A stretch of DNA of 24,000 bases from Candidatus Uhrbacteria bacterium RIFOXYA2_FULL_40_9. Its GTDB lineage: Bacteria > Patescibacteriota > Patescibacteriia > UBA9934 > GWF2-40-263. The position numbers were made by a program, and so were the translations under genes. Every line of letters starts with the position of its first letter. The stretch's first letter is position 1. Of this stretch, positions 719 to 24,000 are shown piece after piece. The stretch is taken from NCBI GenBank assembly GCA_001791615.1, contig MGEY01000052.1, positions 1 through 24,000 of the forward strand. Direction: 5' to 3'. The notes beneath the pieces were generated by a model. That model had not been told where the DNA came from. It was given only the letters and a program-made list of their open reading frames with translations, and made no database searches.

Positions 719-856
719 AGGTTTCTCCATGAGGGTGTTGAGTTAAAAGAACGTAGGGCAACCCCACCGTGGGTTACCGGTATTTGTCTTCCGGTGAAAC
801 GTCGATTTTCATCAACATCTCGCAGAAAGGCCCGAACGTATTCGGGCAATGTCTTC

Positions 857-1666
857 TCACATCCTTCGAGAAATATCCGTGGAATGCACAAACTTGGCTC
901 CCATCTGAATCAATTTCTGAATCATACTGGCAATGTGTCCATCCACAATCTCAATTCCCTTGGTCCCATCCACGACAATGTAAACCTCGAAACCCTGCTT
1001 GAGCAGATCAAAAGCGGTATAGGCAACACAAATGTTGAACGCCAGCCCAACCAAGAAAATCCGACGCACCTGATACCGACGCATACGGATCTGTTCAAGA
1101 AGATTCGTAGGCTCTCCCACGGCATCAAAGACTGCACTATGGCTATCTTTTCGTGGGGACCGTCCCTTGTAGATCACGATTGCAAAAGGATATCTACGCA
1201 GTGCAGGAACAAGCATGGCCTGCTCTGTTCCTTCCATAGAATGCTCAACCCAAACAACCTGATACTCGCCCGTATTTGCGCGAACAGCCATTGCGTACTG
1301 ACGCAAGTAAGGCAGATCAAAACCTGCATGAGGCATGAGCATAGCAGGAGTGAGATTACTGACAAATCCTGGAGTAAGCAGTGTCTTGTTCCCAATCACT
1401 TCTGCCTCAGGTGCATACGAAGTATCAAAAGCAATATGTCCGCATACACGCTGATAGGTTGGATCATACGGATGGCAATCAATGGCTGTCCAGGTATTTT
1501 CCGGACCAAACAAAACGATCAACTGAATCACAGGATCCACAATTTCTTCAGCCTCAGGAACAGGCAAACCTCCGCCTGGAAAAAACCCTCCAGTTACATC
1601 CACAATACCAAGCATGTCATTAAATGGATTGATGAACACAGGTCGCTGGAGCTGATAAGGAAGCAT
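857..1666 (-). CDS. pncA: Nicotinamidase / isochorismatase-family cysteine hydrolase (PncA-like)
   Basis: 269-aa ORF with ATG at 1666 and AAAGGAG 6 nt upstream. It aligns by eye to E. coli PncA landmarks: LGIVDVTGGFFPGGGLPVPE (catalytic Asp region), IDCHP and WVEHS (metal His), YKGRSPRKDSHSAVFD (Lys), GLAFNICVAYTAFDLLKQGFEVYIVVDGTKGI (catalytic Cys). Confidence 0.85.
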   Translation of the reverse strand: MLPYQLQRPVFINPFNDMLGIVDVTGGFFPGGGLPVPEAEEIVDPVIQLIVLFGPENTWTAIDCHPYDPTYQRVCGHIAFDTSYAPEAEVIGNKTLLTPGFVSNLTPAMLMPHAGFDLPYLRQYAMAVRANTGEYQVVWVEHSMEGTEQAMLVPALRRYPFAIVIYKGRSPRKDSHSAVFDAVGEPTNLLEQIRMRRYQVRRIFLVGLAFNICVAYTAFDLLKQGFEVYIVVDGTKGIEIVDGHIASMIQKLIQMGAKFVHSTDISRRM

Positions 1667-1723
1667 GGGGATCTCCTTTTTTTGCTCCTTGAAATGGAGC
1701 AGGTGTGAGAAGGAAAGGAACGA

Positions 1724-3125: not shown

Positions 3126-3146
3126 AGGTAAGTGTTTACATGACAC

Positions 3147-3175
3147 AAAGTACACGTCTTTTTTCTTCCTGTCAA
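3147..3175 (-). promoter_or_regulatory. Putative promoter for nrtR
   Basis: Minus strand TTGACA (rc 3170-3175), a 17-nt spacer, then TACTTT (rc 3147-3152). It starts 12 nt after the pyk stop. Confidence 0.4.
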
Positions 3176-3187
3176 GAAAAACCCCTG

Positions 3188-9572: not shown

Positions 9573-10042
9573 ACTGGAGAAATTATACCAAAGGTAGAAA
9601 GGAGCTTTTTTTGAAGAATAAACATTTTTTCTGCTTGTTTTATGGTTTGATGTTCGTGTCCGAAAAGATGAAGAGACCCATGAATCAGGAGAAAAATAAG
9701 TTCTTTTCTAGCAGAATGTTTTGCTTCTTTTGCTTGCTTCTTTGCTTGAGGATAACACAATAAAATTTCTCCCATCACTTTTTCCATCTCTGGAAAGGCG
9801 TCTTTATTATCCTCAAAAGAAAAAGAAAGAACATCCGTCACACGATCTACCCCACGATACGTTTTATTATACGCTTTTATCTCCTTTTCACTGATAAAAG
9901 CAACGGAAATAAACACAGGTTTTGTTACTTTTAATTGATGACTTATCTCCTCTGCAACCTGTTTTATCATTCTTTCTGGAAGATGTTGCCCTCCGGAAAG
10001 TTGTTTTTGATTAAAAATGAACGTAATCACAAAATTATTCAA
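9569..10042 (-). CDS. ybeY: rRNA maturation endoribonuclease YbeY
   Basis: Zinc motif HGSLHLFGHEH, plus TDVLSF and EILLCYP. The start is either TTG 10042 (8-nt overlap with the upstream gene) or GTG 10030 (4 nt after its TAA). Confidence 0.9.
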   Translation of the reverse strand: MNNFVITFIFNQKQLSGGQHLPERMIKQVAEEISHQLKVTKPVFISVAFISEKEIKAYNKTYRGVDRVTDVLSFSFEDNKDAFPEMEKVMGEILLCYPQAKKQAKEAKHSARKELIFLLIHGSLHLFGHEHQTIKQAEKMFILQKKLLSTFGIISPV

Positions 10043-11024
10043 AAAAAGAAAAACTATTCAACATCATCTGAAAAGTTTGCAAATAATCAACGGTTCCTTT
10101 AATGCCTGTATCATAGCGAAATCGATAAACTCTTTCCCCTATCTCTACATAGGCTTTCAACTGATCTTCTGTTATCAACATCTGATATCCCTGTTTGGTC
10201 ACAGAAGTATAAACGTTTTCAATACCTTCACGTTGAAACTCCTCAGTAACATCTTCTAAACTTCGATCTATGAGAGAGAGATAAAATTGTTCACCAGTTG
10301 TTGACTCAAGACGAATCTCATCTGTTTCTTCTAAAGACCAAGTGGTTGGATGGTAAAAAAAGAAATTCCCTGCCCAAGTAAACACCGTAACCGTTTTTGA
10401 ATCTAAAAGAGTGAGAGGAGAAAGTCCTTTTGGATGATAGCCATGAAAAACTTCATTTCCGTCAAGAAATCCATCCGCATCTGTATCTGGTAAACGACTA
10501 TCTGTTCCATAAATAAGTGTTTCTTCAAGATCTGTAAGTCCATCACTATCAGAATCTTTTCCTGGAGAAACAGGTGCGGTAAAAAGATCAGAAGGCTCTT
10601 CAATGACAGGTTCTTCAAAAACTTCTTCAATAGGTGGAATAACCTCCTCTGTTTGTTGAGGGGGACGTGCTGTGGTAACAGGCTCTTGAGAAATATCTTC
10701 TTGTTTTGGAAGACTTTTTACAAGAATAAAACCAGCAATAGCAAATCCAACAATCACAATCGCTCCAACAATGATCAATTTTTTAGAAATGAGTGTAACT
10801 CTCTTCCCTGAAGGTTTTTGTGCAGGCATCTTAGGAAGTTCTTTCTTTTTTTCGGGAGGAAGAGTTTTTTTCACAGGAGTTGAAATCACCTCTTTTTGTT
10901 TAATAGTTCCTGAAGCCCCATGTCGATACTCTGACGGCATGGTAAATATAAGCGAATCCCCAGTGGTTGCTGGCTTTTGCGTGTTTGGTGGAAGTTGAAT
11001 ACGTGGCATTTCATTCTCTGGCAT
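10035..11024 (-). CDS. Single-pass membrane protein with TSP3-like Asp-rich Ca-binding-type repeats and an unassigned about 140-aa C-terminal domain
   Basis: The track ORF (to 11147) overlaps the upstream gene by 100 nt, so it is trimmed to ATG 11024 (alternative 11009). TM helix LIIVGAIVIVGFAIAGFILV, a P/E-rich linker, DSDSDGLTDLEE and DTDADGFLDGNEV (10440-10560), then a beta-rich tail (TVFTWAGNFFFYHPTTWSLEE...). Confidence 0.8.
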   Translation of the reverse strand: MPENEMPRIQLPPNTQKPATTGDSLIFTMPSEYRHGASGTIKQKEVISTPVKKTLPPEKKKELPKMPAQKPSGKRVTLISKKLIIVGAIVIVGFAIAGFILVKSLPKQEDISQEPVTTARPPQQTEEVIPPIEEVFEEPVIEEPSDLFTAPVSPGKDSDSDGLTDLEETLIYGTDSRLPDTDADGFLDGNEVFHGYHPKGLSPLTLLDSKTVTVFTWAGNFFFYHPTTWSLEETDEIRLESTTGEQFYLSLIDRSLEDVTEEFQREGIENVYTSVTKQGYQMLITEDQLKAYVEIGERVYRFRYDTGIKGTVDYLQTFQMMLNSFSFFE

Positions 11025-11046
11025 ACAAACCGTTGAGGAAAAAGAA

Positions 11047-11703
11047 TTACAAAGTAGGGACTTCAAATAATTTACCTGATCCATTTGGATTGTAACCAGC
11101 ATCAACTTCTGCTCCATCAAGGTATCCATCTTCATCTGTATCCGCATCTAAAGGATCGGTTTCGTAAAGAGTGATTTCTTCTTTATCAAACAGTCCATCT
11201 TTGTCTGTATCACTGCTTCGGAAATCTGTTCCAAGCTCGGCCTCCTCAGCATCTGTTAATCCATCTTTATCTGTATCCAATCCTGGAATCTCTTGTGGTT
11301 CTGTTTCCACTTCTTCTTGCACTACAGGAACTTCTTGAGTGGTTGTTTCTTCAACGGATTTTGAAACATCTGGGAGTGTTGTTGATTTTGGAGTACGCGA
11401 AGAAAGAAGAAGATAAGAAAGAGAGGCGGCTGCGACAATCACCACCAAAATAGCAATGAAAAGAATAATGATTTTCAACACTAGTGTTTTTTCTTTTGTG
11501 TTCAAAGGAGCAGATGACTCAAGGGATGGATGCTTTGGTAAAGAAAGTGGTGGTGCTACTGGCTTCATCGTGGGATTCTTCACAGGAGTAGAGTGTGAAG
11601 AAGTTTCTGGTAAAGAAGCTGTGGGTGGAACAACAGAAGGACCGTCTTGCTCTGTTTGAGCAAAAATGTCTTCAGGTTCTTTAGGGGTAAGATCATCAAA
11701 CAT
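11047..11703 (-). CDS. Single-pass membrane protein with three to four TSP3-like repeats
   Basis: N-terminus MFDDLTPKEPEDIFA, a P/S-rich cytoplasmic segment and TM helix IIILFIAILVVIVAAASLSYLLL. An acidic linker is followed by DTDKDGLTDAEE, DTDKDGLFDKEE and DTDEDGYLDGAEVDAGYNPNG (11080-11290). Confidence 0.8.
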   Translation of the reverse strand: MFDDLTPKEPEDIFAQTEQDGPSVVPPTASLPETSSHSTPVKNPTMKPVAPPLSLPKHPSLESSAPLNTKEKTLVLKIIILFIAILVVIVAAASLSYLLLSSRTPKSTTLPDVSKSVEETTTQEVPVVQEEVETEPQEIPGLDTDKDGLTDAEEAELGTDFRSSDTDKDGLFDKEEITLYETDPLDADTDEDGYLDGAEVDAGYNPNGSGKLFEVPTL

Positions 11704-11752: not shown

Positions 11753-12613
11753 TTATTTGCCTGCTACTATGAGCGGACTATACCCTGCTCTCACTTCTGC
11801 TCCATCAAGGTATCCATCCCCATCTGTATCTGGATTAAGGGGATCTGTAAAATAGGTGTTTACCTCTTCTCCGTCAGAAAGACCATCACTGTCAGAATCT
11901 GCATTGACATCACTTGTCCCAAAACGCATTTCTTGCAATTCATCAAGCCCATCTCCATCACGATCACCAATTCCAACCACATCTTCACAAGAAGCAATAA
12001 GATTTGTATCTGTAATTTGCTGACAAATATCTGGATCTTTTGCCATAATGGCCTGCTCCATTAAAAGAACTTGAGCACAATAAGAAGAATCTCCTGTGCG
12101 CTCAAAACAATTCTCTGAGGTCAAAGGTCCTGCAAGAACACGCAAACATCCTTCTTGTTTTTCTGCATCCAAAATATTCTGACAATCCTTTTCCTTTCCG
12201 CTTGCAAGCGCTTGAGAAAGGTAAAGAGCATCCGCACATATTTGTTGAGTTTGAACATCTATAATCTCTTTACAAAAATCCACATTCTCACGATCACGTG
12301 CCACACTCCAGACACATTCATCAAAAGCATCTCCTTCAAGAACTTTGCATATCTCTACGGCTCCGAGCTTTTGTGCATAAGAACCAATAGCCCGTGTTTG
12401 ACAAGTTTCTTGATTTTCAACCCCTTCACATTCCTTCAAAAGGGCTTGAACTTCCGATTGTTGAGTTGCTTCAAGTACTTGATGGGTTTTCCAGGATCGT
12501 GTGAAAAGAATGGTTCCAAGAATAAGCACAATCACAAACACAATGGCACCAACAACCCATTTCCAAGAAATTTCGTGTGAAGGCAAACTTCTTATTGGTT
12601 CAAGTGTATTCAT
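11753..12613 (-). CDS. Single-pass membrane protein with paired-cysteine repeats followed by TSP3-like repeats
   Basis: ATG 12613 forms an ATGA overlap with the TGA stop of the giant ORF (12610-12612). The track start is TTG 12622. TM helix WVVGAIVFVIVLILGTILF. About six repeats of C-x10-13-C (DFCKEIIDVQTQQIC, DCQNILDAEKQEGC, DICQQITDTNLIASC...). Then DRDGDGLDELQE, DSDSDGLSDGEE and DTDGDGYLDGAEVRAGYSP. Confidence 0.8.
   Translation of the reverse strand: MNTLEPIRSLPSHEISWKWVVGAIVFVIVLILGTILFTRSWKTHQVLEATQQSEVQALLKECEGVENQETCQTRAIGSYAQKLGAVEICKVLEGDAFDECVWSVARDRENVDFCKEIIDVQTQQICADALYLSQALASGKEKDCQNILDAEKQEGCLRVLAGPLTSENCFERTGDSSYCAQVLLMEQAIMAKDPDICQQITDTNLIASCEDVVGIGDRDGDGLDELQEMRFGTSDVNADSDSDGLSDGEEVNTYFTDPLNPDTDGDGYLDGAEVRAGYSPLIVAGK
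11793..11830 (-). repeat. 38-nt segment 36/38 identical to 11105-11142 (the 3' ends of two adjacent TSP3-repeat genes)
   Basis: acttctgctccatcaaggtatccatc[cc/tt]catctgtatc occurs in both genes and encodes DTD(G/E)DGYLDGAEV. This indicates paralogy or gene conversion between neighbours. Confidence 0.85.
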
Positions 12614-15600
12614 AAAGGACAATATTCAAATTGGAAATCTTCAAAACGCATGGTTCCTTCTCCATTAAACTCAACACGCAAAGGAATCGTGAATTCAGAA
12701 GATTCACAAATAAATGCTTCTGGGAATGGGAGAGATCTATCATTTCCTTCAGAAATAACACCGGTGGTTGTGATGGTTGTGCTTCCACTTTCCGTTGTAA
12801 GGGTCATTGTGGCTCCGACGATCGCATCTGCAATGGCTTCGTACATGGTTGTGATTCCTTCGGCGTCAGAAGCTTGATAGGCATATTGTGTCGCATGACA
12901 ATCGCTTGCATCACTCCAATCTGTTCCACATTCCTCACTGGAACAATGTGCCATATAGCCTTCAACGGAAGAGCTAGTCGCAATCACTGCGGAATAAAAT
13001 TGAATACTTGGATTTGCCCCAATAAGCTCTTCACGAATTTCTTGAATACATCCACTCTTATCCGTACCACAAGGTAATCCATCTAAATAAACCGTTGGAG
13101 CTCCATCTGAAAGAAGCACGATAATTTTTGTCGGCGCTGTTGAAGAACTAACAAATAAATCAATCGCCTCTTGAAGACCTGAAGCAGTTGGTGTGCCAGT
13201 ATCCAATCTTGTGAGATATCCCTCAATCGTGGACACTAGTGAACTTTCAGATGTGCTAAATGTTTGATCAATGGTAACAGCCGTGCCATTAAAACTTACA
13301 AGCCCAATATGAAGCGTGACCCCCAAAGCACTCGCGGCATCAAATAATTCTGCTATAGAAGCACTTGTTGCTTCAACAACAGGATAAATACGTGTTGATT
13401 CAATCTCAATAAAACCATCGGCGCCAAAAGGAATCCTCGTTCCTTCTGGGTTCACATACATACTATCAGACAAATCTGTCACAAAGACGATATCAATATC
13501 ATTTGGAACAACATCATCTGCTTCAATATCAGCGGTAAGGGAGACTCCTACAGAACAAGCAGGAAGATAGATCACTCCATTATCAGGTGATTCTCCGGAT
13601 AAATAACGATATAAATCAATATATTGCTGTTTACTTGCCCCAGAAAGTTCACTTTGAACTTGCAGAGAAACGGTTTCATAAGAGAAAGGACAGCTAGATG
13701 CACAATCACTTGCACAAACGGGTTGCACACACGTTCCCCCTGTAGCACAACTTTGTGCATCTGCTCCTGTAGCACCAATCGTACAATAATCACCGTTATC
13801 CTCGCCTCCATTGCAAACACCTACATTCAAACAGGTATATATTCCACTTGTTGTCCCAACAGCACTCGAAGCACAGGTATTACTCACCGCACGAGTATCT
13901 GCATCAAAATAACGATAAGGCAAAACGGTTCCATCACAATATTCTCCTCCATTAATGGTTCCGTCTCCACAATAAGCGCCTGAACTTGTCTTATACTCAC
14001 AAGTGACCGTGCAATACTGACACATCCCTCCGTAAGAAGCCGTGCAAAGATCACCATTCTCGCTTCCTTGATCACAAGATTCTACGCCGGTATACACATA
14101 ATCGTCTCCACAAACATTCCATTCACAGGTATTCAAACAGGCATCATTGTTGCTCGTGTTCCCGTCATCACAAATTTCATCACCTTCTAAAACCCCATTT
14201 CCGCATTGTTGATCTCCGATTACACAAGCAGACCACGTATTCCAAACACATCCAGAACTACAGGTGCGATAACGATAGGCTTGATATCCATCAATGGTTC
14301 CACAAGCAACATACGTTCCTCCACAAGTAGATCCATCCTCACAATCAGCGCTTGTAGTGCAGGTATTTCCATCAGCACAAAGTGCTCCTTCCCATTCTTC
14401 ATACTCCCCATCACAAACTTCTGTTCCATTAAGAATTTGATCTCCGCACGTTGGACCAGGAGTAGAACAATCAAAGGCACAACTTTGCGCATAGGTACTC
14501 ACATATTGCCCATTGGATCCTCTTGTAGACGTGATGTCACAATGTGTATACGCCCAACTACTTGTATCTGCTTTAACCGTGCTCCAATTGGCTGTGGTTC
14601 CACAATCACATTGTTCTCCACCAGCTAAATATCCATCACCACAATAAAAGGAAGTGGTGTAAGTACAATTATCATCGCAATACCCATAGGTTCCATTCAA
14701 TACTCCGTCATCACAAATTTCTGTTCCTTCAACCGTGCCATTTCCACAACTATAAGCTATGCACTCTGTCCCCGCTGTCTCGGCTTCCAAAGCTGTTTGA
14801 TATCCTAAACAATCATCATCACAACGAATAGTGATCAAACCACTCACAACCGTTACTCCATCATCAGCAAGAGTAGTGCAACTTGCGGTGTCTGTATCCC
14901 CAAGTTCACAAGTTTCAATAGAAGGATTCAAAATCCCATCTCCACAAAGTCCTGTGTTTCCTACGGTTGTCCCGGAACAATACATTTCTGTTGAAATAAA
15001 TCCTATTTGCAATGGAATGGTTGTATATCCACCGCTATATTCGACACTGAGCGTTGCACTATCTGTGGAATCTGTATCAATCGGATAGGCCCAAGCGCCT
15101 CCGTTATATTCAAGCTCAAGAGAAAGAATAAACTCTTCTCCACCAATACCGCGATATCCATACACATGAGATCCACTTGGACATTTAAACAATCCTTGCG
15201 TGCCATTCCAACAAGAATCAGAATCATACCCATCATCTGTACATTGATAAAACGCATTAAGAGGATCAACAGGAAGAGTTTCTTGAAGTTCATTTGAAAG
15301 TACCGCATTCCAAGAAGGCCAATTACTAATCGTCATGGAAGGAATATAGGACCCCGCACTGATAAGTGGAACATCTGGAACACAGGTCTCTGTTCCAAGA
15401 CAATCATCATCCTGCGTACAACTTGTATCTGTGGTTACAGAACAATGAGCATACGTTTCTCCATGAGTATTGATTATGTCAAGAATATCTACGGCATCAG
15501 AAAGACGCTTGGTATCGCGTTGTAACTTGGCTTTTTCTGCATCACAATAAGAAGTTCTTGCAGTTCCAAGAGGACAACTGTTATCCGTTACTCCTGTGCA

Positions 15601-18600
15601 AGACTCTCCTGTGATAGAACAGGCATAGGTCTCATTTGCTTGTGCTTCACAAATCTCTGTTCCTCCACAATCTCCATCCCATTCACATGCAATAAAATCT
15701 CCGCTTGCATTATGAATATATCCATTAGTATTTGCGCACAAATTCACATCAGAAATGACATCAGTGTTTGCATTGAACTGCCAATTTCTCAAAATTCGAT
15801 CAAAAATCTCCAATGATTCTTCACCTGCATCTTCATTGTAGGAAATCACGTACATGTTTGGATAAATACTATTTCCACTCTGATTTGTTGCAAGGACATA
15901 TTGTGTGGTTCCTTCTTCTACGGCTTGATAACCATCTAACGTGGTTTGTGAAGGAGAACCAGAAAATCCCTGATCTTCATACCACTGTAAAGGAGAAGTA
16001 TAGTCATCATTTGTAACCACACGAACACCTAAAGCGTCACTGGTTCCTTGTACTTGGAAAAGAAGTTCCTGATAAATACTAGAAGAAATAGAATGCACTT
16101 CAATTGGCATACCTGTGCTATTTCCTAAAGCAGGAAGATCATCATCTGTTCCCTCATCCCCTTCATCACGACAATAAGAGAAAGAAAAATTTGTGGAAGA
16201 ATCAAGGTAGTGATAATTATTTCCAGAAATCCATGGATTTTCACAAAGCATAGCCCAGATAGGAAGTTCTCCTTGCACAGTTTCTCTTTGTACCGTACAG
16301 GCTTCTCCAGCGCCCGTATCACAATCATCAGAAGTCTCACAACTTATTCCGCTTGTTTCACAAAGATGCTCGGTGGAAAATTCATAGGTATCTATTGTCA
16401 CAGTGGCTTGGGCAAATACCGTTGCTCCTCCATCCTCGCCCTCAGCCGTTACAAAAGCATCGTGATCATCCAAAGCAAGTTCATCAGAACCAGATTCTGA
16501 AGCAGTGGTTGTTGTGACCACGGTTTCTTCAGTAGAACCCCATGTCCACTCCCAAGCATAATCCTCTGAAGACGTGATTTCTTCTTGTACCGCTCCATCA
16601 AGATGATAAGCGGTTGCCATAAAGTAGTGAACTTCTCCTATTTCAGTAAAAAATTCTTCACTGGCACTTTCGTACTCTGCATAGTCAGTGCGTCCAAAAT
16701 CAACAACAACAACTTGATCGAGTGAACAAATTTCATTACCCACTGTAAAAGAGGTCATGATTTCAGAAGGATTTACCAACCCCACTCCAAACGTATTTAA
16801 AACTCCTTCATCAATAGCATCAGTCAGATCACTATCTCCAAGAACAACAAGTCGATACGTGGCTCCTTCTTCTAAAATACCAGAATAACGAACAGAAACT
16901 CGAACTCCACCATCTGAGACATCACTTTTTTGATACGTTACAGGCACCGCACACACCGTTGTTTCTGCAGAAACTTCTCTTCCAAAAAAACTCAAAACCT
17001 GTTCACGAATCCAGTGCCAGGCACGTGCAAAAACTCCTTCTGGAGGTTGTACATACACGGTTGTTTCCCAACCAGTTGGACAAACCGTTCCAGTATATTC
17101 AAGGTAAATTTGTGGATCTGTTCCGTTTCCAGAAGGATCAAGAGAGTCTAAATCCACATCTTGGGAAAACTCTACCCAAAGCGCGGTATTTTGACAGACA
17201 TTTGTTGCACCACTTTCTGGATAAACACTTCCCGTTTCAGGACGCAAATAACAACATCCACCCGTGCCACAGCCATAACTCTCTTCAGGAGAACCACAAT
17301 CAGCATCTGTTTGACAAGAACACTCTACAGAAAGTAGACCTTCTGCTGTCACACGTTCTGCTTCTGTTTGAATGGTTGTAACCGCATAATGTGTAATTGG
17401 ATCAACTTCTTCTGCAACTGTTTCACTCACTTGCGCAACCGCAAAAGCACCGGAACTGATGGAACTCGTTGTTTCACATTCTTCATAAGTACTTTGAAGA
17501 CCATCTCCACAATAAGAAGGAATAAGACCATCAACAGAAGCCCCTTCATTTAAACAAATCGCTGAGCACCCATCTCCTGCCTCAACATCAAATAAATCAC
17601 AATCTTCTGCGTCATTTAAATCATCGCCGTTATAATCTGTTATACCATCTCCGCAACAAGGAGTGCTTATAGCTTGACAAGTATCAGTACTCTCACAATC
17701 TCCATCGCTAATACAATTCACGCCATAACTTGTGCCATCAAAACAAGCAAACACACAAGCACTTGCTCCCTCAAAAAGACAACGAGAAGAACATCCATCT
17801 CCAGAACTTGTATTTCCATCATCACAATCTTCTCCATTTCCAATATCTCCATCTCCGCAAGTTGCTTCAATATCTGTGATAGCTACTGCTCCCTCAAAAA
17901 GACAGCGAGAAGAACATCCATCTCCAGAACTTGTATTTCCATCATCACAATCTTCTCCTCCTGTTCCCCTATAGTAATCTACCCGCCCATCTCCACACGT
18001 TGTCGTTGAACCTTCATTTTGACAAGCTAAAGAACACCCATCACCACTAACACTATTTGAATCATCACATTCTTCTCCCACGCTCACAAATCCATCTCCA
18101 CAACATCCACCCGGAACAAGAGAACAAATATCTGTCTGTTCCACACAAACATCAGTGACTTCTGCGCAAACCTCTTCAGTTTCTGTGTCACAATCTGCAT
18201 CTGTCAAACAACTCAAACCACTTGTTTCACATGCATAAGTCGTACAACTTGCGTCTGTGGTACAAACCGCTCCACCTATTTGACAAAAGAATGTGCTACA
18301 AGAAGCATCTGTGGTACAGGTTGCTCCAGAATCTTCACAAGCAAAAGGACAAGCACTTGTTCCTTCCCAAAAACAAGCATCAGAACATCCGCCTTCTCCA
18401 TCACAATCTTCTGCTTCATGATATCCATCTCCATTATAATCAGTGATTCCGTCTCCACACACAGGATCTAAAAGAGAAACCGTTGCCCCAGTATTTAAAC
18501 AACTAGCAGAACACCAAGCAGGAAGATCTGTTGAAAGACTAATTGCTCCTGACTCAAGCATTTCTGCAACCGTGGGTTGTGTTGAAAGCCAAGGCTCCCA

Positions 18601-21600
18601 AGAATACGAAGAGGATTGCAAAACTTGTCCGGAGACTGCGCAATCATCTGGAGCTCCGTAAGGAACAGCTTCATACACTTGTCTTGCTCCGATCCTATCT
18701 AATGTCGCTTGTTCTGGATCAAGTTCAATACGATCAATTCCACAACTAATATCACTATTTTTTGTGGTAAAAATCCAAGAAAAATCAGTTGGATAATAGG
18801 CATTTTCTGAAAAAGGCCCACCATAATTTGATCCTGAATCCGCAAGTGCGACCCCTGAAGTTGAGAGAAGATTTCCAGAAAGCCAGACACGATAATGCGT
18901 ATTTGCTTCAAGAGAAGGACAGGCGCTTGTGCTTATGGTGACTTTCTGTGTTGTGGCCGTTCCCACAGAAGCACACGTTACTTCTGTAAGCTCACCTGGA
19001 GCACAAAGGGCATCTTCACATTGATAAAGCTTAACATTAGATGAGTTGAACAAACTGGTATCCATGAGCGCTTCAAATTCTGCATAAATACCTGCATTTA
19101 CACAGGCAGTTGAACAATTTGGAACATAATCACCCACTTCTGGATCAGAAAAATCAATAATCAGGTCTGCATCCCCCACAGGTTGAGTACTTGCACTCGT
19201 AACCTGAGATTCAATAAGAGCTGGGATACCCGGAGATGTTTCATCCAAAGCAGTTACTATTTTTTGACAAGACCCTGTAACCGCGGAAGGCTCACTCACT
19301 TTTGCAGATGAATCACTTGATGACCAATAAAGTGTTTCTCCTGTGCAAGGACTAAGAACACATTCATCAGCATCAGAAACAAGGGAAGCGAGATACCCGA
19401 CAGATTCATTAAGTGTTCTCGCTGTATAAGGATCAGGGCTTACATACACATCACCAACTTCACAAGAGGCATCTGTTGGAGCTGTGGTAAATGACCAAGT
19501 AAAATCTTCTTCTAAATAGCCCTCACCCGCGGAAGCATCTGCTTGAATACGTCCTGCTTCATCCCCTCCAAGCAACGTTACTTGATAGGTGGTGGATGTT
19601 TCAAAATCTTCTGCATGAGATGCCGTAAAACCTCTTGTTCCTACATTAAAACTCCACACAAACGGTACTTCTTCTAATGTGTCACACACATCTGTACAGG
19701 TAAAAGTTCTTCCACTTGCGGTCACACAGGTTCCTCCGACAATTGCGGAACATTTTTCTAAAACCAGATTTGAACTCGTGAGGCTTGAGCCCTTCATATC
19801 CATATCAAACGTCGCTCCGATATCCGCATTTACGCAAACAGACTCTGCGGGACTCCATCCTTCCCAAGGAGAAGGAGAAGCAATTCCTTCTGTTGAACTA
19901 CAAGCAACTCTCACCCTTGGGGTGTTTGCAATCGTTCTTGTTGTAAATTTATACGCATAATGCGAATCAATCACAGTCTCAGGACATCCTCCGGTTGTAA
20001 AACTCGCACATGTTCCATCAGAACAACACTCTTCTTGAAGTGAACAAATGCTGGAATCTTCCACACAATTACCCACTTGAAAATTCAATGGATTAGATCG
20101 ATATCCTTCAGCTGATGTCACTGTAACAGGACCTGTTTGGGCATTATCTGGAACTTCTGTTTCAAGCACAGATCCATCATCCCAAGAAGTGTAAAGAGAA
20201 GAATCAATAGTTTGATTTAAATAATACGTCACACTTCCATCCGTTGTTTGAAAATTTTCTCCATAAATATCCACCAGGCTTCCCACAGGACCAGAATCTG
20301 GATCAAGTAAACAAATGGATGGACCTGGTTCACCAGCAATCACCTCAAAAGCAACAGATTCAGAAGTTTGTCCATCTGTGCCACGATAAATATGAATAGT
20401 GTGTGAACCTGTTTCAAGAATATCTTCTGTTGCTGTTGAATATTGCTCAGGCACTTTGATCAAAATACTTGTGTCTGTCCAATATTCGCTTCCGCAAGCT
20501 ACTGGAAAAACACTATCTCCAATGGCAGTGACTCCATCAAGGCTACTGCCAGTATTGTTTGTAAAATAGACGAGTCCATCAGCATGTCCAAACTCGGTTC
20601 CATAAATGGTGACATATTGCCCAAGAGGGCCCCAGTTTGGCGCGTCTTCACATGTTCCAGTTCCACAATCTTCATCTTCGGTACAAACCATTCCATCATG
20701 TTCTCCTTCGAAGCACGCTTGCCAACCTGTTTCTACATAGGAAATAACCGGAGGAGCATCACTAGATGTTGTAGAAACAGTAAAATCAATCTCATTTGAT
20801 CCTTGTCGAATAGATTCACATGTTCCTTCACCAGTCCCACAATCTTCATCTTCACTACAAGCTTCTAAAGTTTCACTACACCATGCTGTCACACAAGATT
20901 CACTCAGAGATTCCCCACAATCCACATCCTCTGAACAAACATCTCCTGAAGTTTCACAAAAATAATCTCCGGCAAATACTTGAACATCATAAGCTCCATC
21001 ATCAAGCAATGGAGTCACAGCAGAAATTTCTGAAGTCTCCCAATGTAAATAGGAAGTGGGTTCATAATAATCAAAATAAAGGGCTGAACTTCCTTGAAGT
21101 GCGCCAAGATTATCTCCTAAAATTGTCACATCATCATTTCCTTCCCCTGTAGAAGGGGTGATGGAACAAAGTCCTGGCCGTTCAATCGCATTGACATCAA
21201 AATCTGTAATATATGGACCATAATCATCATCCGTACGGTCGTAATCTCCTTCTGATTCATCACTGCTCACAACTGTCACTTGGATTGGTCCGTCGATTGC
21301 TCCTTCTGGAACTTGCACAATGATCTGATCTGCTTGCCAAGCAAGAGTTCCTCCACAGCTATAAGCACTTACTTCAACTTCATCTCCGCTTTCTGTTCCA
21401 AGAAAGGTAATACTTCCAGGATCTGTGCCAAACCCTTCTCCAGAAATGGTAATTAAATTACCAGGAGCTCCATTTCCTGCACGCACACGAGAAATTTTTG
21501 GAACAGTGACGCAAATCCCCTCTTCACAAGTTCCACTAGCACATTGAGAATCTTCAGTGCATGCATCCCCGCCACATGCTCCACAATAATATTCACTACT

Positions 21601-22812
21601 TATATCTCCTCCACAGTTCAGACCGGTTTCTCCCAAATCAGTATCAATTACATCATTGGCACAATTTGCTGCTCGAAGAGTAATAGTGATGCGATCAGAA
21701 GTATCACTGTTCCCTGCACAATCTGATCCAACTGCATAAATCGCATAGGTTTCATTTGTGAGATATCCTTCTGTATTCCACTCTCTTGAAGTATCTGAAT
21801 TGAAATAGTTTAACGCAGAAAGAACCCCATACACACTCAGATCTAATCCTGCGGTTTCTACTTCCTCAGAATCAACATAAAAATTAACAGAAGAAACACC
21901 CACATCGTCAACGGCTTCTGTTTGTAAAAGTTCATTCTCTCCTGTGGCATACACATTTCCTTCATCTTCTGGAGCTTCCATGGTCATGGTCGGCCCGCTG
22001 ACATCAATCGCGGCATCTGCTCCAATCGTAAAAGAATAAGAACAAGGATAGGAAGAACTACAAGAGAGACTTCTTCCACTGGTACTGCGCAAAATAGTCG
22101 GACTTACCGTAGCAATATAAGAAGTACTGGAAGAAAAACAATGTTCTGTTTCAAAACCTGTTTCTGAACAAAATGCATCTGGCGTAAATGTTACGGTATA
22201 ACCTGAGGTCGTAAATGTTCCTTCAACCTCTTCTCCTCCATCCACTTCAATGCTGATCGCGCTTTCCACGGTTGAGGAAGACACTCTTTGAGAAAAAACA
22301 AATTGTAATTGCAAATTCTTCACTGACTCTGCGCAATCTGTATTCAAAGACGCAAGATAAAAGGTTGAAGAAGTACTTGGATTTGGATCTTCTGAATAAT
22401 CCGTTGGATCTTCTGTGATAATTCTTCCTGTTGCTTCTTCAAGGGAACGAAGAACAAATTGGGTGATGGTGAACGCAGAAAGAACAATAACCAAACCGAT
22501 CAAGGCATTGATGATCATTCCTCTTGCTTTGGTCACACGTTCTTTGTCTCCTCCTGCTGTCATCCAAAGAAATCCGGCATACACCACAAACACCACAGCA
22601 ACTATTCCAAGCAAAGAAATAGCAGTTCTAATGAGACGGGCAATAATGACCGTAATATCCACACTTGTGGTAAATCCGGCAATTTCTCCAAAGGTCTCCA
22701 TTTGTGATTGCATTTCTGTTTGCGCGAATGTTGGCAAAGCAACACAGAAGCCTGTGATCAAAAGCATGCCAAAAAGGATGCTTGCTAATTTTTTAGATCG
22801 TAAACGGCACAT
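12610..22812 (-). CDS. Giant (3400 aa) pilin-anchored, cysteine-rich, multi-domain surface protein with C-terminal vWA domain
   Basis: A single uninterrupted 10.2-kb reading frame with ATG at 22812. Recognisable motifs run end to end, which argues against a chance ORF. See the domain-level entries below. Confidence 0.9.
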   Translation of the reverse strand: MCRLRSKKLASILFGMLLITGFCVALPTFAQTEMQSQMETFGEIAGFTTSVDITVIIARLIRTAISLLGIVAVVFVVYAGFLWMTAGGDKERVTKARGMIINALIGLVIVLSAFTITQFVLRSLEEATGRIITEDPTDYSEDPNPSTSSTFYLASLNTDCAESVKNLQLQFVFSQRVSSSTVESAISIEVDGGEEVEGTFTTSGYTVTFTPDAFCSETGFETEHCFSSSTSYIATVSPTILRSTSGRSLSCSSSYPCSYSFTIGADAAIDVSGPTMTMEAPEDEGNVYATGENELLQTEAVDDVGVSSVNFYVDSEEVETAGLDLSVYGVLSALNYFNSDTSREWNTEGYLTNETYAIYAVGSDCAGNSDTSDRITITLRAANCANDVIDTDLGETGLNCGGDISSEYYCGACGGDACTEDSQCASGTCEEGICVTVPKISRVRAGNGAPGNLITISGEGFGTDPGSITFLGTESGDEVEVSAYSCGGTLAWQADQIIVQVPEGAIDGPIQVTVVSSDESEGDYDRTDDDYGPYITDFDVNAIERPGLCSITPSTGEGNDDVTILGDNLGALQGSSALYFDYYEPTSYLHWETSEISAVTPLLDDGAYDVQVFAGDYFCETSGDVCSEDVDCGESLSESCVTAWCSETLEACSEDEDCGTGEGTCESIRQGSNEIDFTVSTTSSDAPPVISYVETGWQACFEGEHDGMVCTEDEDCGTGTCEDAPNWGPLGQYVTIYGTEFGHADGLVYFTNNTGSSLDGVTAIGDSVFPVACGSEYWTDTSILIKVPEQYSTATEDILETGSHTIHIYRGTDGQTSESVAFEVIAGEPGPSICLLDPDSGPVGSLVDIYGENFQTTDGSVTYYLNQTIDSSLYTSWDDGSVLETEVPDNAQTGPVTVTSAEGYRSNPLNFQVGNCVEDSSICSLQEECCSDGTCASFTTGGCPETVIDSHYAYKFTTRTIANTPRVRVACSSTEGIASPSPWEGWSPAESVCVNADIGATFDMDMKGSSLTSSNLVLEKCSAIVGGTCVTASGRTFTCTDVCDTLEEVPFVWSFNVGTRGFTASHAEDFETSTTYQVTLLGGDEAGRIQADASAGEGYLEEDFTWSFTTAPTDASCEVGDVYVSPDPYTARTLNESVGYLASLVSDADECVLSPCTGETLYWSSSDSSAKVSEPSAVTGSCQKIVTALDETSPGIPALIESQVTSASTQPVGDADLIIDFSDPEVGDYVPNCSTACVNAGIYAEFEALMDTSLFNSSNVKLYQCEDALCAPGELTEVTCASVGTATTQKVTISTSACPSLEANTHYRVWLSGNLLSTSGVALADSGSNYGGPFSENAYYPTDFSWIFTTKNSDISCGIDRIELDPEQATLDRIGARQVYEAVPYGAPDDCAVSGQVLQSSSYSWEPWLSTQPTVAEMLESGAISLSTDLPAWCSASCLNTGATVSLLDPVCGDGITDYNGDGYHEAEDCDGEGGCSDACFWEGTSACPFACEDSGATCTTDASCSTFFCQIGGAVCTTDASCTTYACETSGLSCLTDADCDTETEEVCAEVTDVCVEQTDICSLVPGGCCGDGFVSVGEECDDSNSVSGDGCSLACQNEGSTTTCGDGRVDYYRGTGGEDCDDGNTSSGDGCSSRCLFEGAVAITDIEATCGDGDIGNGEDCDDGNTSSGDGCSSRCLFEGASACVFACFDGTSYGVNCISDGDCESTDTCQAISTPCCGDGITDYNGDDLNDAEDCDLFDVEAGDGCSAICLNEGASVDGLIPSYCGDGLQSTYEECETTSSISSGAFAVAQVSETVAEEVDPITHYAVTTIQTEAERVTAEGLLSVECSCQTDADCGSPEESYGCGTGGCCYLRPETGSVYPESGATNVCQNTALWVEFSQDVDLDSLDPSGNGTDPQIYLEYTGTVCPTGWETTVYVQPPEGVFARAWHWIREQVLSFFGREVSAETTVCAVPVTYQKSDVSDGGVRVSVRYSGILEEGATYRLVVLGDSDLTDAIDEGVLNTFGVGLVNPSEIMTSFTVGNEICSLDQVVVVDFGRTDYAEYESASEEFFTEIGEVHYFMATAYHLDGAVQEEITSSEDYAWEWTWGSTEETVVTTTTASESGSDELALDDHDAFVTAEGEDGGATVFAQATVTIDTYEFSTEHLCETSGISCETSDDCDTGAGEACTVQRETVQGELPIWAMLCENPWISGNNYHYLDSSTNFSFSYCRDEGDEGTDDDLPALGNSTGMPIEVHSISSSIYQELLFQVQGTSDALGVRVVTNDDYTSPLQWYEDQGFSGSPSQTTLDGYQAVEEGTTQYVLATNQSGNSIYPNMYVISYNEDAGEESLEIFDRILRNWQFNANTDVISDVNLCANTNGYIHNASGDFIACEWDGDCGGTEICEAQANETYACSITGESCTGVTDNSCPLGTARTSYCDAEKAKLQRDTKRLSDAVDILDIINTHGETYAHCSVTTDTSCTQDDDCLGTETCVPDVPLISAGSYIPSMTISNWPSWNAVLSNELQETLPVDPLNAFYQCTDDGYDSDSCWNGTQGLFKCPSGSHVYGYRGIGGEEFILSLELEYNGGAWAYPIDTDSTDSATLSVEYSGGYTTIPLQIGFISTEMYCSGTTVGNTGLCGDGILNPSIETCELGDTDTASCTTLADDGVTVVSGLITIRCDDDCLGYQTALEAETAGTECIAYSCGNGTVEGTEICDDGVLNGTYGYCDDNCTYTTSFYCGDGYLAGGEQCDCGTTANWSTVKADTSSWAYTHCDITSTRGSNGQYVSTYAQSCAFDCSTPGPTCGDQILNGTEVCDGEYEEWEGALCADGNTCTTSADCEDGSTCGGTYVACGTIDGYQAYRYRTCSSGCVWNTWSACVIGDQQCGNGVLEGDEICDDGNTSNNDACLNTCEWNVCGDDYVYTGVESCDQGSENGDLCTASYGGMCQYCTVTCEYKTSSGAYCGDGTINGGEYCDGTVLPYRYFDADTRAVSNTCASSAVGTTSGIYTCLNVGVCNGGEDNGDYCTIGATGADAQSCATGGTCVQPVCASDCASSCPFSYETVSLQVQSELSGASKQQYIDLYRYLSGESPDNGVIYLPACSVGVSLTADIEADDVVPNDIDIVFVTDLSDSMYVNPEGTRIPFGADGFIEIESTRIYPVVEATSASIAELFDAASALGVTLHIGLVSFNGTAVTIDQTFSTSESSLVSTIEGYLTRLDTGTPTASGLQEAIDLFVSSSTAPTKIIVLLSDGAPTVYLDGLPCGTDKSGCIQEIREELIGANPSIQFYSAVIATSSSVEGYMAHCSSEECGTDWSDASDCHATQYAYQASDAEGITTMYEAIADAIVGATMTLTTESGSTTITTTGVISEGNDRSLPFPEAFICESSEFTIPLRVEFNGEGTMRFEDFQFEYCPL
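12815..13500 (-). other. Giant protein C-terminal von Willebrand factor A domain with intact MIDAS
   Basis: DIVFVTDLSDSM (DxSxS), LDTGTPTASGLQEAIDLF (MIDAS Thr) and KIIVLLSDGAPT (MIDAS Asp). This is followed by an about 65-aa beta-like tail ending FEYCPL. Confidence 0.8.
13690..14950 (-). other. Giant protein cysteine-rich repeat block II
   Basis: CGDGILNPSIETCE, CGNGTVEGTEICDDGVLNGTYGYCDDNC, CGDGYLAGGEQCDCG, CGDQILNGTEVCDG, CGNGVLEGDEICDDGNTSNNDACLNTC, CGDDYVYTGVESCDQGSENGDLC and CGDGTINGGEYCDG, followed by a Cys-dense linker down to CASDCASSCPF. Confidence 0.7.
17480..18459 (-). other. Giant protein aa about 1452-1777: cysteine-rich repeat block I (CGDG-x-CDDGN-x-GDGCS-x-C, DUF4215/Myxococcus Cys-rich-repeat-like)
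   Basis: CGDGITDYNGDGYHEAEDCDGEGGCSDAC, CCGDGFVSVGEECDDSNSVSGDGCSLAC, CGDGRVDYYRGTGGEDCDDGNTSSGDGCSSRC, CGDGDIGNGEDCDDGNTSSGDGCSSRC, CCGDGITDYNGDDLNDAEDCDLFDVEAGDGCSAIC, CGDGLQSTYEECE, plus C-x-TDA-x-C mini-repeats. Confidence 0.7.
17764..17958 (-). repeat. Two 72-nt direct repeat copies (17764-17835 and 17887-17958), 71/72 identical, period 123 nt, inside the giant ORF
   Basis: Both copies read tgctccctcaaaaagaca[a/g]cgagaagaacatccatctccagaacttgtatttccatcatcacaatcttctcc. They encode the identical peptide EDCDDGNTSSGDGCSSRCLFEGA twice. Other repeat units of the same family are diverged at the DNA level. Confidence 0.9.
20071..21501 (-). other. Giant protein aa about 438-914: four IPT/TIG-like beta-sandwich modules separated by short Cys-rich inserts
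   Basis: PKISRVRAGNGAPGNLITISGEGFG...IIVQVPEGAIDGPIQVTV; PGLCSITPSTGEGNDDVTILGDNLG...; GQYVTIYGTEFG...ILIKVPE...; PSICLLDPDSGPVGSLVDIYGENF...ETEVPDNAQTGPVTVT. Confidence 0.7.
22438..22812 (-). other. Giant protein aa 1-125: signal peptide plus two-helix TrbC/VirB2-type (T4SS_pilin, PF18895-like) membrane hairpin
   Basis: The signal peptide MCRLRSKKLASILFGMLLITGFCVALPTFA|Q is followed by ARLIRTAISLLGIVAVVFVVYAGFLWMTAGGDKERVTKARGMIINALIGLVIVLSAFTITQFVL. The pattern is hydrophobic helix, GG-D/N-x-E-x3-K-A, hydrophobic helix, as I recall it for CPR and Gram-positive conjugative-type pilins. Confidence 0.65.
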
Positions 22813-22843: not shown

Positions 22844-24000
22844 TTATGGAACAGGTAAAACAAACCCAGAAGTAGACGTTTCTGTTTCTCCATCAGTCAC
22901 ACAAGGGGTTGACTGACGTTCTCCATCACAACAATACACTTCTCCAGATGCAATTCGACCATCATCTTCTAAAGAAGTACATCCAATGATAGTGCTAGAT
23001 GAAGCAGAAGGCCCATAAGCAGGATACATACAAATCTGCCAGCTACTTTTCACTCCATTTTCAATAACAGGATAGTAATCCCACCCTCCATCTGTTTGAC
23101 TCACAAAAGTTGGGTGATTCATCGTGATAAGAGAATAAGTTTTATCTGTACTTACTTCATTTCGAAGAGAAAACCACATTTCATACAATGGATCAGGCCA
23201 CAGAGAAAGAGCTTCGCTATTTAAGGTGGAAGATTTCATGGTGGTATTAAAAGAAATCGTCACAGGTTGTTGCTGAATGACATCCCCTTCACTAATTCCT
23301 GGATCTATTAAGGTGATTTCTGGAACCGTATCGTTCACATTGTCTGTAGTATCAAATTCCCAAGAATAATCATCATTCGTTATTGTGGTTATTTCACCTA
23401 CTAGAGAAACTCCATCTGTATCTGATCCTGCGGCTTGTCCATCTCCATCTCCATCTAAAGAATTTCCACATACATCTATAAGTCCGTCATACTCTGTTCC
23501 TCGAGGAACTGCTTGTGGTGCATCATCCCCCACAGAAGCGGCATGAGCTTCTACCACAATGGTTTCAAGAGGTGGAAGACAATAAATGGTGTCACCACAA
23601 GGATCTTCCCCACAAGCATCAAAGGTGGTGAAGCCAACAGTTCGATACCCATTACTAATTTCATAGGTCCCTTCAACCAGAGAAGGAACGGAATCAGAAA
23701 TTTCAATATTGGAAAAATAATCCCCTAGCTCTATAGAATAAACACCAGTTGCGGCAACAGGATCCATGGCTTCATTAAAAGTCATTTCAATGGTGATGTT
23801 GCGATCGTATGGAGTGGTTGATTCAACCGGAATCACAGAAACGACTTGTGGAGGTGTGAGATCAACTTCTGTTGAAACTTCAAACGTCCATTCGTAGCCA
23901 TCAGAATAGCGTCCGGAAAAAGCAAGCGTTCCATCTGCCTTTTCAATGGTTGTTTTAAGAACAATGGTATAGTTTGTATCTTCAAGGGGACTTCCTAACA
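22844..24000 (-). CDS. Large Ig-like (SbsA/Big_5-type) surface protein, C-terminal part (5' end beyond the window)
   Basis: The track starts it at GTG 23836, but I translated the frame upstream and it stays open to 24000 (...YEWTFEVSTEVDLTPPQVVSVIPVES...). DLTPPQVVSVIPVESTTPYDRNITIEMTFNEAMDPV and VPEITLIDPGISEGDVIQQQPVTISFNTTMKSSTL are Big_5-type module starts. Cys-rich C-terminus. The stop lies 31 nt before the giant ORF start. Confidence 0.8.
   Translation of the reverse strand, partial: LGSPLEDTNYTIVLKTTIEKADGTLAFSGRYSDGYEWTFEVSTEVDLTPPQVVSVIPVESTTPYDRNITIEMTFNEAMDPVAATGVYSIELGDYFSNIEISDSVPSLVEGTYEISNGYRTVGFTTFDACGEDPCGDTIYCLPPLETIVVEAHAASVGDDAPQAVPRGTEYDGLIDVCGNSLDGDGDGQAAGSDTDGVSLVGEITTITNDDYSWEFDTTDNVNDTVPEITLIDPGISEGDVIQQQPVTISFNTTMKSSTLNSEALSLWPDPLYEMWFSLRNEVSTDKTYSLITMNHPTFVSQTDGGWDYYPVIENGVKSSWQICMYPAYGPSASSSTIIGCTSLEDDGRIASGEVYCCDGERQSTPCVTDGETETSTSGFVLPVP

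Follow-up and report, generated by a model that had tools for sequence, protein, structure and literature searches.

The 24,000-nucleotide stretch analysed here (the window), from Candidatus Uhrbacteria bacterium RIFOXYA2_FULL_40_9 (contig MGEY01000052.1, positions 1 to 24,000), carries a gene, referred to below as the giant, whose 3,400-amino-acid (aa) product begins with a pilin-like two-helix module. This module lies within residues 1-125 (window positions 22438-22812) and is followed by a further 3,275 residues. Adjacent genes on the same strand encode a second pilin fusion on one side and three membrane proteins on the other (Table 1). The protein record of the giant derives from Candidatus Uhrbacteria bacterium GW2011_GWF2_40_263 (GCA_000994725.1, class ABY1). 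An identical 3,400-aa protein was called on 15 contigs from independent assemblies (NCBI, ENA and JGI), indicating that the open reading frame (ORF) is not an assembly artefact.

A first-pass annotation of this DNA had described the N-terminus as a TrbC/VirB2-like pilin hairpin of conjugative type. Membership of a pilin family was confirmed: scanned by themselves, residues 1-125 reached 43.7 bits (E=2.9e-11) on PF18895 (T4SS_pilin), whose curated gathering cut-off is 26.6, and the match covered profile positions 5-71 of 71 (94% coverage). As a sequence match this is far beyond chance. The classical model fell short: PF04956 (TrbC/VirB2) scored 14.7 bits (E=0.036), under its cut-off of 27.9; the NCBIfam Mbov_0395 pilin-like family reached 30 bits, under a cut-off of 40. 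Judged by these profiles, the module is a member of the branch of the conjugative-pilin superfamily typical of the Candidate Phyla Radiation (CPR), and not of TrbC/VirB2 proper.

A phmmer search with the first 136 residues against 1.84 billion representative proteins returned 33,775 relatives at E<1e-3, and many PF18895 family members also match PF04956 (TrbC). In a collection of 5.8 billion proteins, the best 120 of 767 profile hits were all 74-315 aa long, with PF18895, alone or together with PF04956, as their sole domains. Stand-alone proteins are therefore the norm for PF18895, and the fusion is lineage-specific. The earlier view that the module is here joined to a large protein, and does not form a pilin of about 100 aa on its own, is thus borne out.

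The N-terminal sequence reads, in order, MCRLRSKKLASILFGMLLITGFCVALPTFA↓QTEMQ… (the arrow marks the predicted cleavage site), and then ITVIIARLIRTAISLLGIVAVVFVVYAGFLWMTAGG-DKERVTKARG-MIINALIGLVIVLSAFTITQFVL. The order of helix, AGGDKERVTKARG and helix that had been recognised as a pilin layout was recovered, with AGGDKERVTKARG located at residues 86-98 and flanking helices supported by AlphaFold2 and by the hydropathy and charge scan. In the AlphaFold2 model of residues 1-140 (pLDDT 77.6), helices were placed at residues 6-33 (leader), 36-44, 53-85 and 90-132, and the modelled arrangement is the α1/α2/loop/α3 layout of conjugative pilins. A Foldseek search of the hairpin model against the PDB gave non-significant helical-bundle matches, none with E<1, two-helix hairpins holding little fold information. 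A profile of the N-terminal module compared with PDB sequences likewise retrieved no solved pilin and nothing else of relevance.

The giant and the stand-alone pilins have an AG(F/L/V) motif in common; in the giants it lies in the mature N-terminal tail as A45-G46-F47 and was invariant among 18 aligned orthologues. Like this motif, R59/R62 and YAGFLWMTAGG…KA(K/R) are common to both groups and lie outside the hydrophobic cores. The module of the giant was on average 39% (at most 68%) identical to stand-alone pilins, compared with 46% between giants. Among 18 giants, mean pairwise identity came to 55% in the pilin module and 41% in the ectodomain, with 24% in the linker between them.

The signal peptide noticed earlier was found as ...ALPTFA↓Q at residues 25-31. 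In the 18 aligned orthologues A30 was invariant and P27 nearly so, and across 28 giants the site had Ala at -1, V/A/T/L at -3 and, in 21 of the 28, Gln at +1. Cleavage after A30 is therefore predicted. The leader is of the signal peptidase I type (A-x-A↓Q), and no match to N_methyl (PF07963) was detected in the giant.

A 19-residue hydropathy scan detected hydrophobic segments at residues 7-31, 51-88 and 93-124 alone, and none in the other 3,275 residues. K/R and D/E residues numbered four and none in the n-region, none and four ahead of helix 1, four and two within the loop, and one and eight beyond helix 2; averaged over 28 giants, the loop had 4.0 K/R and 1.5 D/E. Once the leader is removed, this pattern is the one expected under the positive-inside rule for a hairpin with both termini outside (out-in-out), and under the predicted topology the other 3,275 residues would be extracellular. 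All topology indicators thus pointed away from a cytoplasmic location for the bulk of the protein.

The 3,275 residues after position 125 contain 185 Cys (5.6%) and 0.6% Lys, and have a net charge of -455. Their domain matches are of extracellular type (Ig-like Big_5, Big_7 and TIG, Cys-rich acidic repeats and VWA), so that the predicted ectodomain is a chain of surface modules. The Cys-rich acidic repeats are concentrated in two blocks, at about residues 1450-1800 and 2620-2950 (eight myxo_disulf_rpt and four DUF4215 matches). A strongly conserved region at about residues 1830-2620 (window positions ~14950-17300, minus strand) had no Pfam match; F-S-F-Y-Y-C-R-D-x-G, DALGVRV and S-x-W-P-S-W are among its motifs. 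YCRDxG by itself was specific enough to pull 53 loci out of 185,579 genomes.

The C-terminus of the giant reads ...FQFEYCPL, and the xYCP ending was kept in 26 of 28 giants. VWA (PF00092) scored 25.6 bits against a cut-off of 23.8, and the five residues of the metal-ion-dependent adhesion site (MIDAS) were invariant or nearly so in an alignment of 11 sequences, with DxSxS or DxTxS present in 20 of the 28 giants. AlphaFold2 modelled the last 360 residues with pLDDT 87 and pTM 0.85; in the numbering of this fragment, β-sandwich strands occupy residues 7-58 and 295-360, and a VWA α/β domain is inserted at 67-293. In a Foldseek comparison of the head with the PDB, PitA, Mfa5, SpaC and PilB came out on top (E 2e-13 to 1e-9), ahead of integrin β headpieces. 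When 11 orthologues were combined into a profile of the last ~360 residues and this was compared with all PDB sequences, the vWA domain of Streptococcus sanguinis PilB was the best match (6.7e-15); SpaC (1.6e-12), Mfa5, GBS104 and RrgA came next, all of them adhesins from the tips of sortase or type V pili. The last 360 residues are confidently modelled as a VWA domain with a complete MIDAS inside a β-sandwich, resembling pilus-tip adhesins.

Table 1. Features of the giant and of its neighbours in the window and just beyond its edge (aa, residues of the encoded protein).
Feature	Position	Strand	Description
Giant gene (KKR57332.1)	12610..22812	minus	3,400 aa and stop codon; annotated 'hypothetical protein'
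Signal peptide	22723..22812	minus	aa 1-30; n-region MCRLRSKK (4 K/R), h-region aa 11-26, c-region P-T-F-A, then Q31; cleavage predicted
Mature N-terminal tail	22657..22722	minus	aa 31-52; acidic, short helix 36-44, predicted extracellular
PF18895 T4SS_pilin match	22453..22656	minus	aa 53-120; from profile, hydropathy/charge scan and AlphaFold2
Parts of the module			helix aa 53-85; basic loop GGDKERVTKARG aa 87-98; second helix from aa 90 (to 132 in AlphaFold2)
Linker	22363..22446	minus	aa 123-150; variable, acidic, S/T/P-rich; lowest identity of any region (24% mean)
Stalk	13696..22362	minus	aa 151-3039; three Big_5, one Big_7, four TIG, Cys-rich acidic repeats, conserved unassigned region
Distal head	12613..13695	minus	aa 3040-3400; β-sandwich (3046-3097 and 3334-3399) with inserted VWA (~3106-3332); ends ...YCP(L)
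MIDAS motif	13462..13476	minus	D3113-L-S3115-D-S3117; partner residues T3207 and D3236
Partner gene (KKR57333.1)	22844..24000, continuing past the window (full gene, locus L001:7996-9969)	minus	window holds the 3' part, aa 273-657
yqeY with C-terminal extension	L001:7227-7964, outside the window		upstream of the partner gene; extension conserved
TSP3-repeat single-pass membrane protein	11753..12622	minus	289 aa; start overlaps the giant stop by 13 nt; 38 loci
Second TSP3-repeat single-pass membrane protein	11047..11703	minus	218 aa; 41 loci
Conserved single-pass membrane protein	10035..11147	minus	~350 aa; no family, weak TSP3-like motif; 43 loci; called as 10068..11135 in the source record

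Homologues were sampled by an exhaustive phmmer search with the N-terminal 136 aa and by a genome scan. Among the best 150 relatives of the N-terminal module, 28 were proteins of 3,000-4,400 aa with the module at about residues 1-130, where they were 44-55% identical to the window module. Eighteen of these giants were colinear with the window protein over its full length (39-49% identity); more distant relatives were shorter versions of 1,400-2,800 aa. The scan of one genome per species detected 53 loci, most of them labelled Ca. Uhrbacteria, and about 40 matched residues 1-3,399. The closed CPR chromosomes OZ246408.1 and OY970181.1 are among those with the locus. Colinear orthologues are thus present in at least 53 species-level genomes, mainly of Ca. 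Uhrbacteria.

The distal end was found to differ between lineages (P0132, P0122, P0117 and P0121), with the pilin module and the first Big_5 domain constant. In orthologue P0132 the terminal β-sandwich was kept and the VWA insert was absent, and a Magasanikbacteria-type relative of 4,428 aa (P0122, locus L007) had FG-GAP, LVIVD and Laminin_G_3 modules, with no VWA among its listed Pfam hits. These two cases indicate that the effector end is exchangeable and the pilin end constant.

Gene order around the giant was nearly invariant. On the 5' side lie engA(-), lytR(-), signal peptidase I, hisS, …, rpsU, yqeY and a gene for a protein of ~600-700 aa; on the 3' side lie two TSP3-repeat genes, a ~350-aa unknown, ybeY, dgkA, ftsA, ftsZ, nrdR, htrA and pyk. 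The block EngA-LytR-SPaseI-HisRS-…-YqeY-partner-giant-TSP3-TSP3-unk-YbeY-FtsA-FtsZ-NrdR-HtrA-PK was recovered in about 45 species. The first-pass annotation had seen no machinery of a type IV secretion system (T4SS), and this was upheld for the window, where family scans detected none of its families in any substantial ORF. The Pfam lists of four distinct annotated loci (L001, L005-L007) also contained none, and no T4SS gene was present within 10 kb of the giant in about 45 syntenic loci (four judged by Pfam lists, the rest by synteny). Since gene order is nearly invariant and no T4SS family occurs at the loci, the giant is a vertically inherited core-genome gene and does not belong to a conjugative or T4SS island. 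The absence does not extend to the genome as a whole: VirB4, TrsD, a four-gene VirB2-like array (KKR56689-92) and T4CP-like proteins are encoded elsewhere in it (Table S3, PMC12102498).

Directly upstream of the giant lies the gene of the partner, a protein of 630-657 aa with a signal peptide, a PF18895 module at residues 88-152 (29.6 bits against a cut-off of 26.6, just beyond the window edge), two Big_5 domains and a Cys-containing C-terminal domain. It was paired with the giant in 41 of the 53 loci. Further upstream, the extension of yqeY consists of a hydrophobic segment ending …RAQA↓A, then helix-SSGRNDDQMAATRK-helix up to the stop codon. PF18895 scored 19 bits here (sub-threshold), our own pilin hidden Markov model (HMM) 24-35 bits in about 20 genomes, and identity to the module of the giant was 25%, so that a third, divergent and pre-pilin-like module is possible. 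In yqeY a cytoplasmic domain is joined to this pilin-like hairpin.

Downstream, the three genes between 10035 and 12622 (minus strand) are co-conserved with the giant in about 40 species; TSP3_bac denotes thrombospondin-type-3 Ca2+-binding repeats. The 13-nt overlap between the giant stop codon and the first TSP3 gene suggests translational coupling. The locus is a previously undescribed surface operon of three to six genes.

Each part of the giant has counterparts among known systems. The closest are the CPR VirB2-like pilins, for which arrays of 2-11 genes have been surveyed (PMC12102498) and a six-gene array is essential in Southlakia epibionticum. The giant belongs to the same family and phylum and has the same layout of leader, helix, basic loop and helix, and its own genome contains a four-gene array. 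Those pilins, however, are 100-300 aa long and end a few residues past helix 2, whereas the giant runs on for 3,275. In 1,135 of 1,948 VirB4-containing assemblies with such pilins (~58%), the pilin gene lies near virB4 (PMC12102498); that of the giant never does. The survey took the small size of VirB2 into account, and its table is without the giant and the partner (PMC12102498). Compared with the classical pilins TraA, VirB2, TrbC and TrhA (PF04956), the giant has a cleaved leader (predicted), a basic loop joining the helices, and termini on the same side. It differs in its sub-threshold PF04956 score, in showing no detectable relation to solved pilins, in its monoderm host and in being about 50 times larger.

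The modular type IV pilin PilB of S. sanguinis (PDB 7b7p, PMC8179133) resembles the giant in that a pilin module at its N-terminus is joined through a linker to an adhesive vWA domain with MIDAS. It belongs to another pilin superfamily, with a class III signal peptide, processing by prepilin peptidase and a single α1 helix, in contrast to the signal peptidase I leader and two-helix hairpin of the giant. Moreover, PilB has 426 aa and one grafted domain, whereas about 3,000 stalk residues separate pilin and head in the giant. Modular pilins are established for type IV pilins, with CPR examples included (PMC8179133); the giant lacks the class III signal peptide that defines them but follows the same design logic.

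Tip adhesins of sortase pili (SpaC of L. rhamnosus, PitA of S. oralis, RrgA and GBS104) and of type V pili (Mfa5) have the same VWA domain with MIDAS in a β-sandwich. Unlike them, the giant has no LPXTG, sortase pilin motif or lipoprotein/type V signal (it ends ...EYCPL), and it would be anchored N-terminally by a membrane hairpin instead of by covalent pilus linkage. With fibrillar adhesins it has in common the succession of anchor, stalk and adhesive tip, Ig-like domains, acidity, Ca2+-type repeats and a distal adhesive domain, but its polarity is inverted relative to most Gram-positive examples (anchor N-terminal, head C-terminal). Conserved across a CPR lineage, the giant unites in one protein what is otherwise known from VirB2-like CPR pilins, modular pilins and fibrillar adhesins. 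In the literature searched (subscription journals lay outside the search), no description was found of a VirB2-like hairpin or pilin fused to a large ectodomain or anchoring a giant surface protein; public domain-architecture tables implicitly hold such fusion proteins.

With slightly better than even confidence, we regard the giant as a fibrillar adhesin of an ultrasmall groundwater CPR bacterium, held at the surface by a genuine VirB2-like (PF18895) module and probably in pilin-pilin contact with its partner. According to this proposal, signal peptidase I would cut after A30, helix 1 would cross the membrane from outside to inside, and the basic loop would remain cytoplasmic. Helix 2 would re-exit and start the transfer of the ectodomain. 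Disulfides and Ca2+ would stabilise the acidic stalk, which would carry the VWA head away from the cell over a distance of the order of 100 nm if extended; through its metal site the head could then bind a ligand, either on a host cell or on a substrate. Most likely the pilin module would remain a membrane anchor, probably associated laterally with the module of the ~650-aa partner and possibly with other pilins.

The first-pass annotation had offered two roles for the module, a membrane or fibre anchor and a minor or tip subunit of a pilus; the membrane anchor is favoured here because the long stalk already gives reach and because the locus is vertically inherited, embedded among housekeeping genes and not a T4SS cluster. 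In weak agreement with an anchor, giants were present in Uhrbacteria metagenome-assembled genomes (MAGs) scored VirB4-positive and VirB4-negative alike: among the giant-bearing genomes in the VirB4 table of PMC12102498, all of them draft MAGs, four were positive and five negative.

Several observations weigh against this preference. The VirB4-negative genomes are draft MAGs, and one of them has its giant in the same 90% cluster as that of the VirB4-positive window genome. The stand-alone pilin arrays of Uhrbacteria and Doudnabacteria are also not adjacent to virB4, and since ordinary pilin arrays are likewise unlinked, the distance of the giant from T4SS genes is weak evidence. Among 18 orthologues the pilin module ranked with the three 80-residue segments of the giant that showed the highest conservation, and it retains residues typical of the family for which a plain anchor would have no use (A45-G46-F47, R59/R62, G69, G80 and G88). 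Both the cleavage at A30 and the membrane topology are, in addition, predictions.

A possible, though less probable, role of the giant is that of a modular VirB2-type pilin, in which the module, once inserted into the membrane, would be extracted by the CPR T4SS (VirB4/TrsD) and built in as a rare or tip subunit, so that the pilus displays a giant adhesin. The giant would then provide an adhesin function, which otherwise seems to be missing from CPR T4SSs (no VirB5 or PrgB); the CPR T4SS survey found no PrgB-like adhesin (PMC12102498). The module is a strongly conserved, undiverged family member, the genome has VirB4, TrsD and four VirB2-like pilins, and two, possibly three, consecutive pilin-domain genes are arranged in the style of a minor-pilin operon. 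The head is most similar to tip adhesins from three classes of pili, among them the modular type IV pilin PilB. [quoted passage not shown]

On the other side, an ectodomain of 3,275 aa dwarfs the known modules of modular type IV pilins, which are far smaller (the most extreme example has 860 residues in total; PMC8179133), and a stalk of this length would make a carrier filament unnecessary. T4SS genes were never linked to the giant in about 45 loci, its presence in MAGs without detected VirB4 also speaks against a pilus, if weakly, and no CPR T4SS pilus has yet been demonstrated (PMC12857230). A fuller version of the pilus proposal, which we hold to be a little more doubtful still, is that the fusions are the first modular VirB2-type pilins. 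In this version, a T4SS or another assembly platform of Uhrbacteria and related CPR bacteria would polymerise the small PF18895 pilins, with the ~650-aa and ~3,400-aa fusions as priming or tip subunits, and the filament would bear the giant VWA adhesin for episymbiotic host attachment, in place of VirB5/PrgB.

It is unlikely that the giant, the partner and the three TSP3 proteins form an envelope scaffold, that is, a Ca2+-bridged coat or S-layer-like structure anchored by hairpins and tied to envelope growth and division. The invariant position between lytR/signal peptidase I and ybeY-ftsA-ftsZ in this lineage would fit such a role, as would the Big_5 Ig-like domains, the charge of -455 and the co-conserved proteins with Ca2+-binding TSP3 repeats. 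Orthologue P0132, entirely without the VWA insert, and P0122, with FG-GAP/Laminin_G and no VWA among the Pfam hits shown, point in the same direction. However, most orthologues keep the MIDAS motif and the head is adhesin-like, proximity to ftsAZ may reflect just the conserved gene order of a small genome, and a single copy of a 3,400-aa protein would be an unlikely former of a lattice.

Even less probable is a function of the hairpin as a secretion or processing device, with the ectodomain cut off after helix 2 and either released or passed to another anchor. Classical pilins such as TrhA and RP4 TrbC undergo C-terminal trimming (PMC11722321), and the linker that follows helix 2 varies and is probably flexible, but it is the least conserved region and has no conserved cleavage motif. 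A signal peptide alone would do for secretion, which would leave the conserved two-helix module unexplained. Finally, a generic two-helix anchor resembling pilins through chance hydrophobicity, as might be read from the failure of Foldseek and the PDB profile search to retrieve a solved pilin and from the sub-threshold TrbC score, is effectively refuted by the PF18895 score and coverage, by the 33,775 phmmer family members, by the PF04956 matches of many family members, and by the AGF, YAGFLWMTAGG and KA(K/R) loop motifs outside the hydrophobic cores that are common to stand-alone pilins.

CPR bacteria (Patescibacteria) are thought to live attached to other cells. To our knowledge, the T4SS and VirB2-like pilins are essential in the only genetically tractable CPR member. 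The locus, in which the same kind of pilin module is joined to a giant protein with a pilus-tip-like VWA head, is a concrete candidate for the host-attachment organelle of Uhrbacteria. It is also a natural experiment on the function of PF18895 modules, be it as membrane anchor, oligomeric platform or filament subunit, and with it the modular pilin principle, established for type IV pilins, reaches the unrelated conjugative-pilin fold. Part of the PF18895 family is missed by surveys that are confined to small proteins. The interest of the locus would be considerably greater if the module proves to enter a filament.

Some further observations were made on the loci and on the wider family. Two plus-strand ORFs at the start of the window (122..547 and 590..1708) had no family match and are probably spurious as genes, being antisense to an isochorismatase-family gene (857..1666, minus strand; PF00857, 47 bits). 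Many MAG records with a typical Uhrbacteria locus are titled 'uncultured Gammaproteobacteria bacterium' and are evidently mislabelled (L009, L012, L015, L017, L030, L035, L037, L038, L040 and others). In two genomes (L006:357-6557 and L044) an inserted type IV pilus cluster separates hisS from yqeY and so lies immediately upstream of the genes for the pilin fusions; it consists of an N_methyl pilin, PilB/T2SSE, PilC/T2SSF, a prepilin peptidase A24 and four unknown genes.

Stand-alone pilin arrays of at least 11 genes in Uhrbacteria (L062:2879-10366) and of five genes in Doudnabacteria (L060:9113-11423) had no VirB4 within 10 kb. Each was directly preceded by an SBP_bac_1 solute-binding protein gene, and the array of L062 was broken by a Y1 transposase and a toxin-antitoxin pair. 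Proteins of 220-260 aa with two pilin domains were numerous (e.g. L060:9530-10195). It was also found that a single 1,775-aa ORF (P0031; L061:8001-13328, plus strand) encodes 17 tandem TrbC/T4SS_pilin domains; it adjoins a gene for ribosomal protein L39e, and the contig is therefore probably archaeal.

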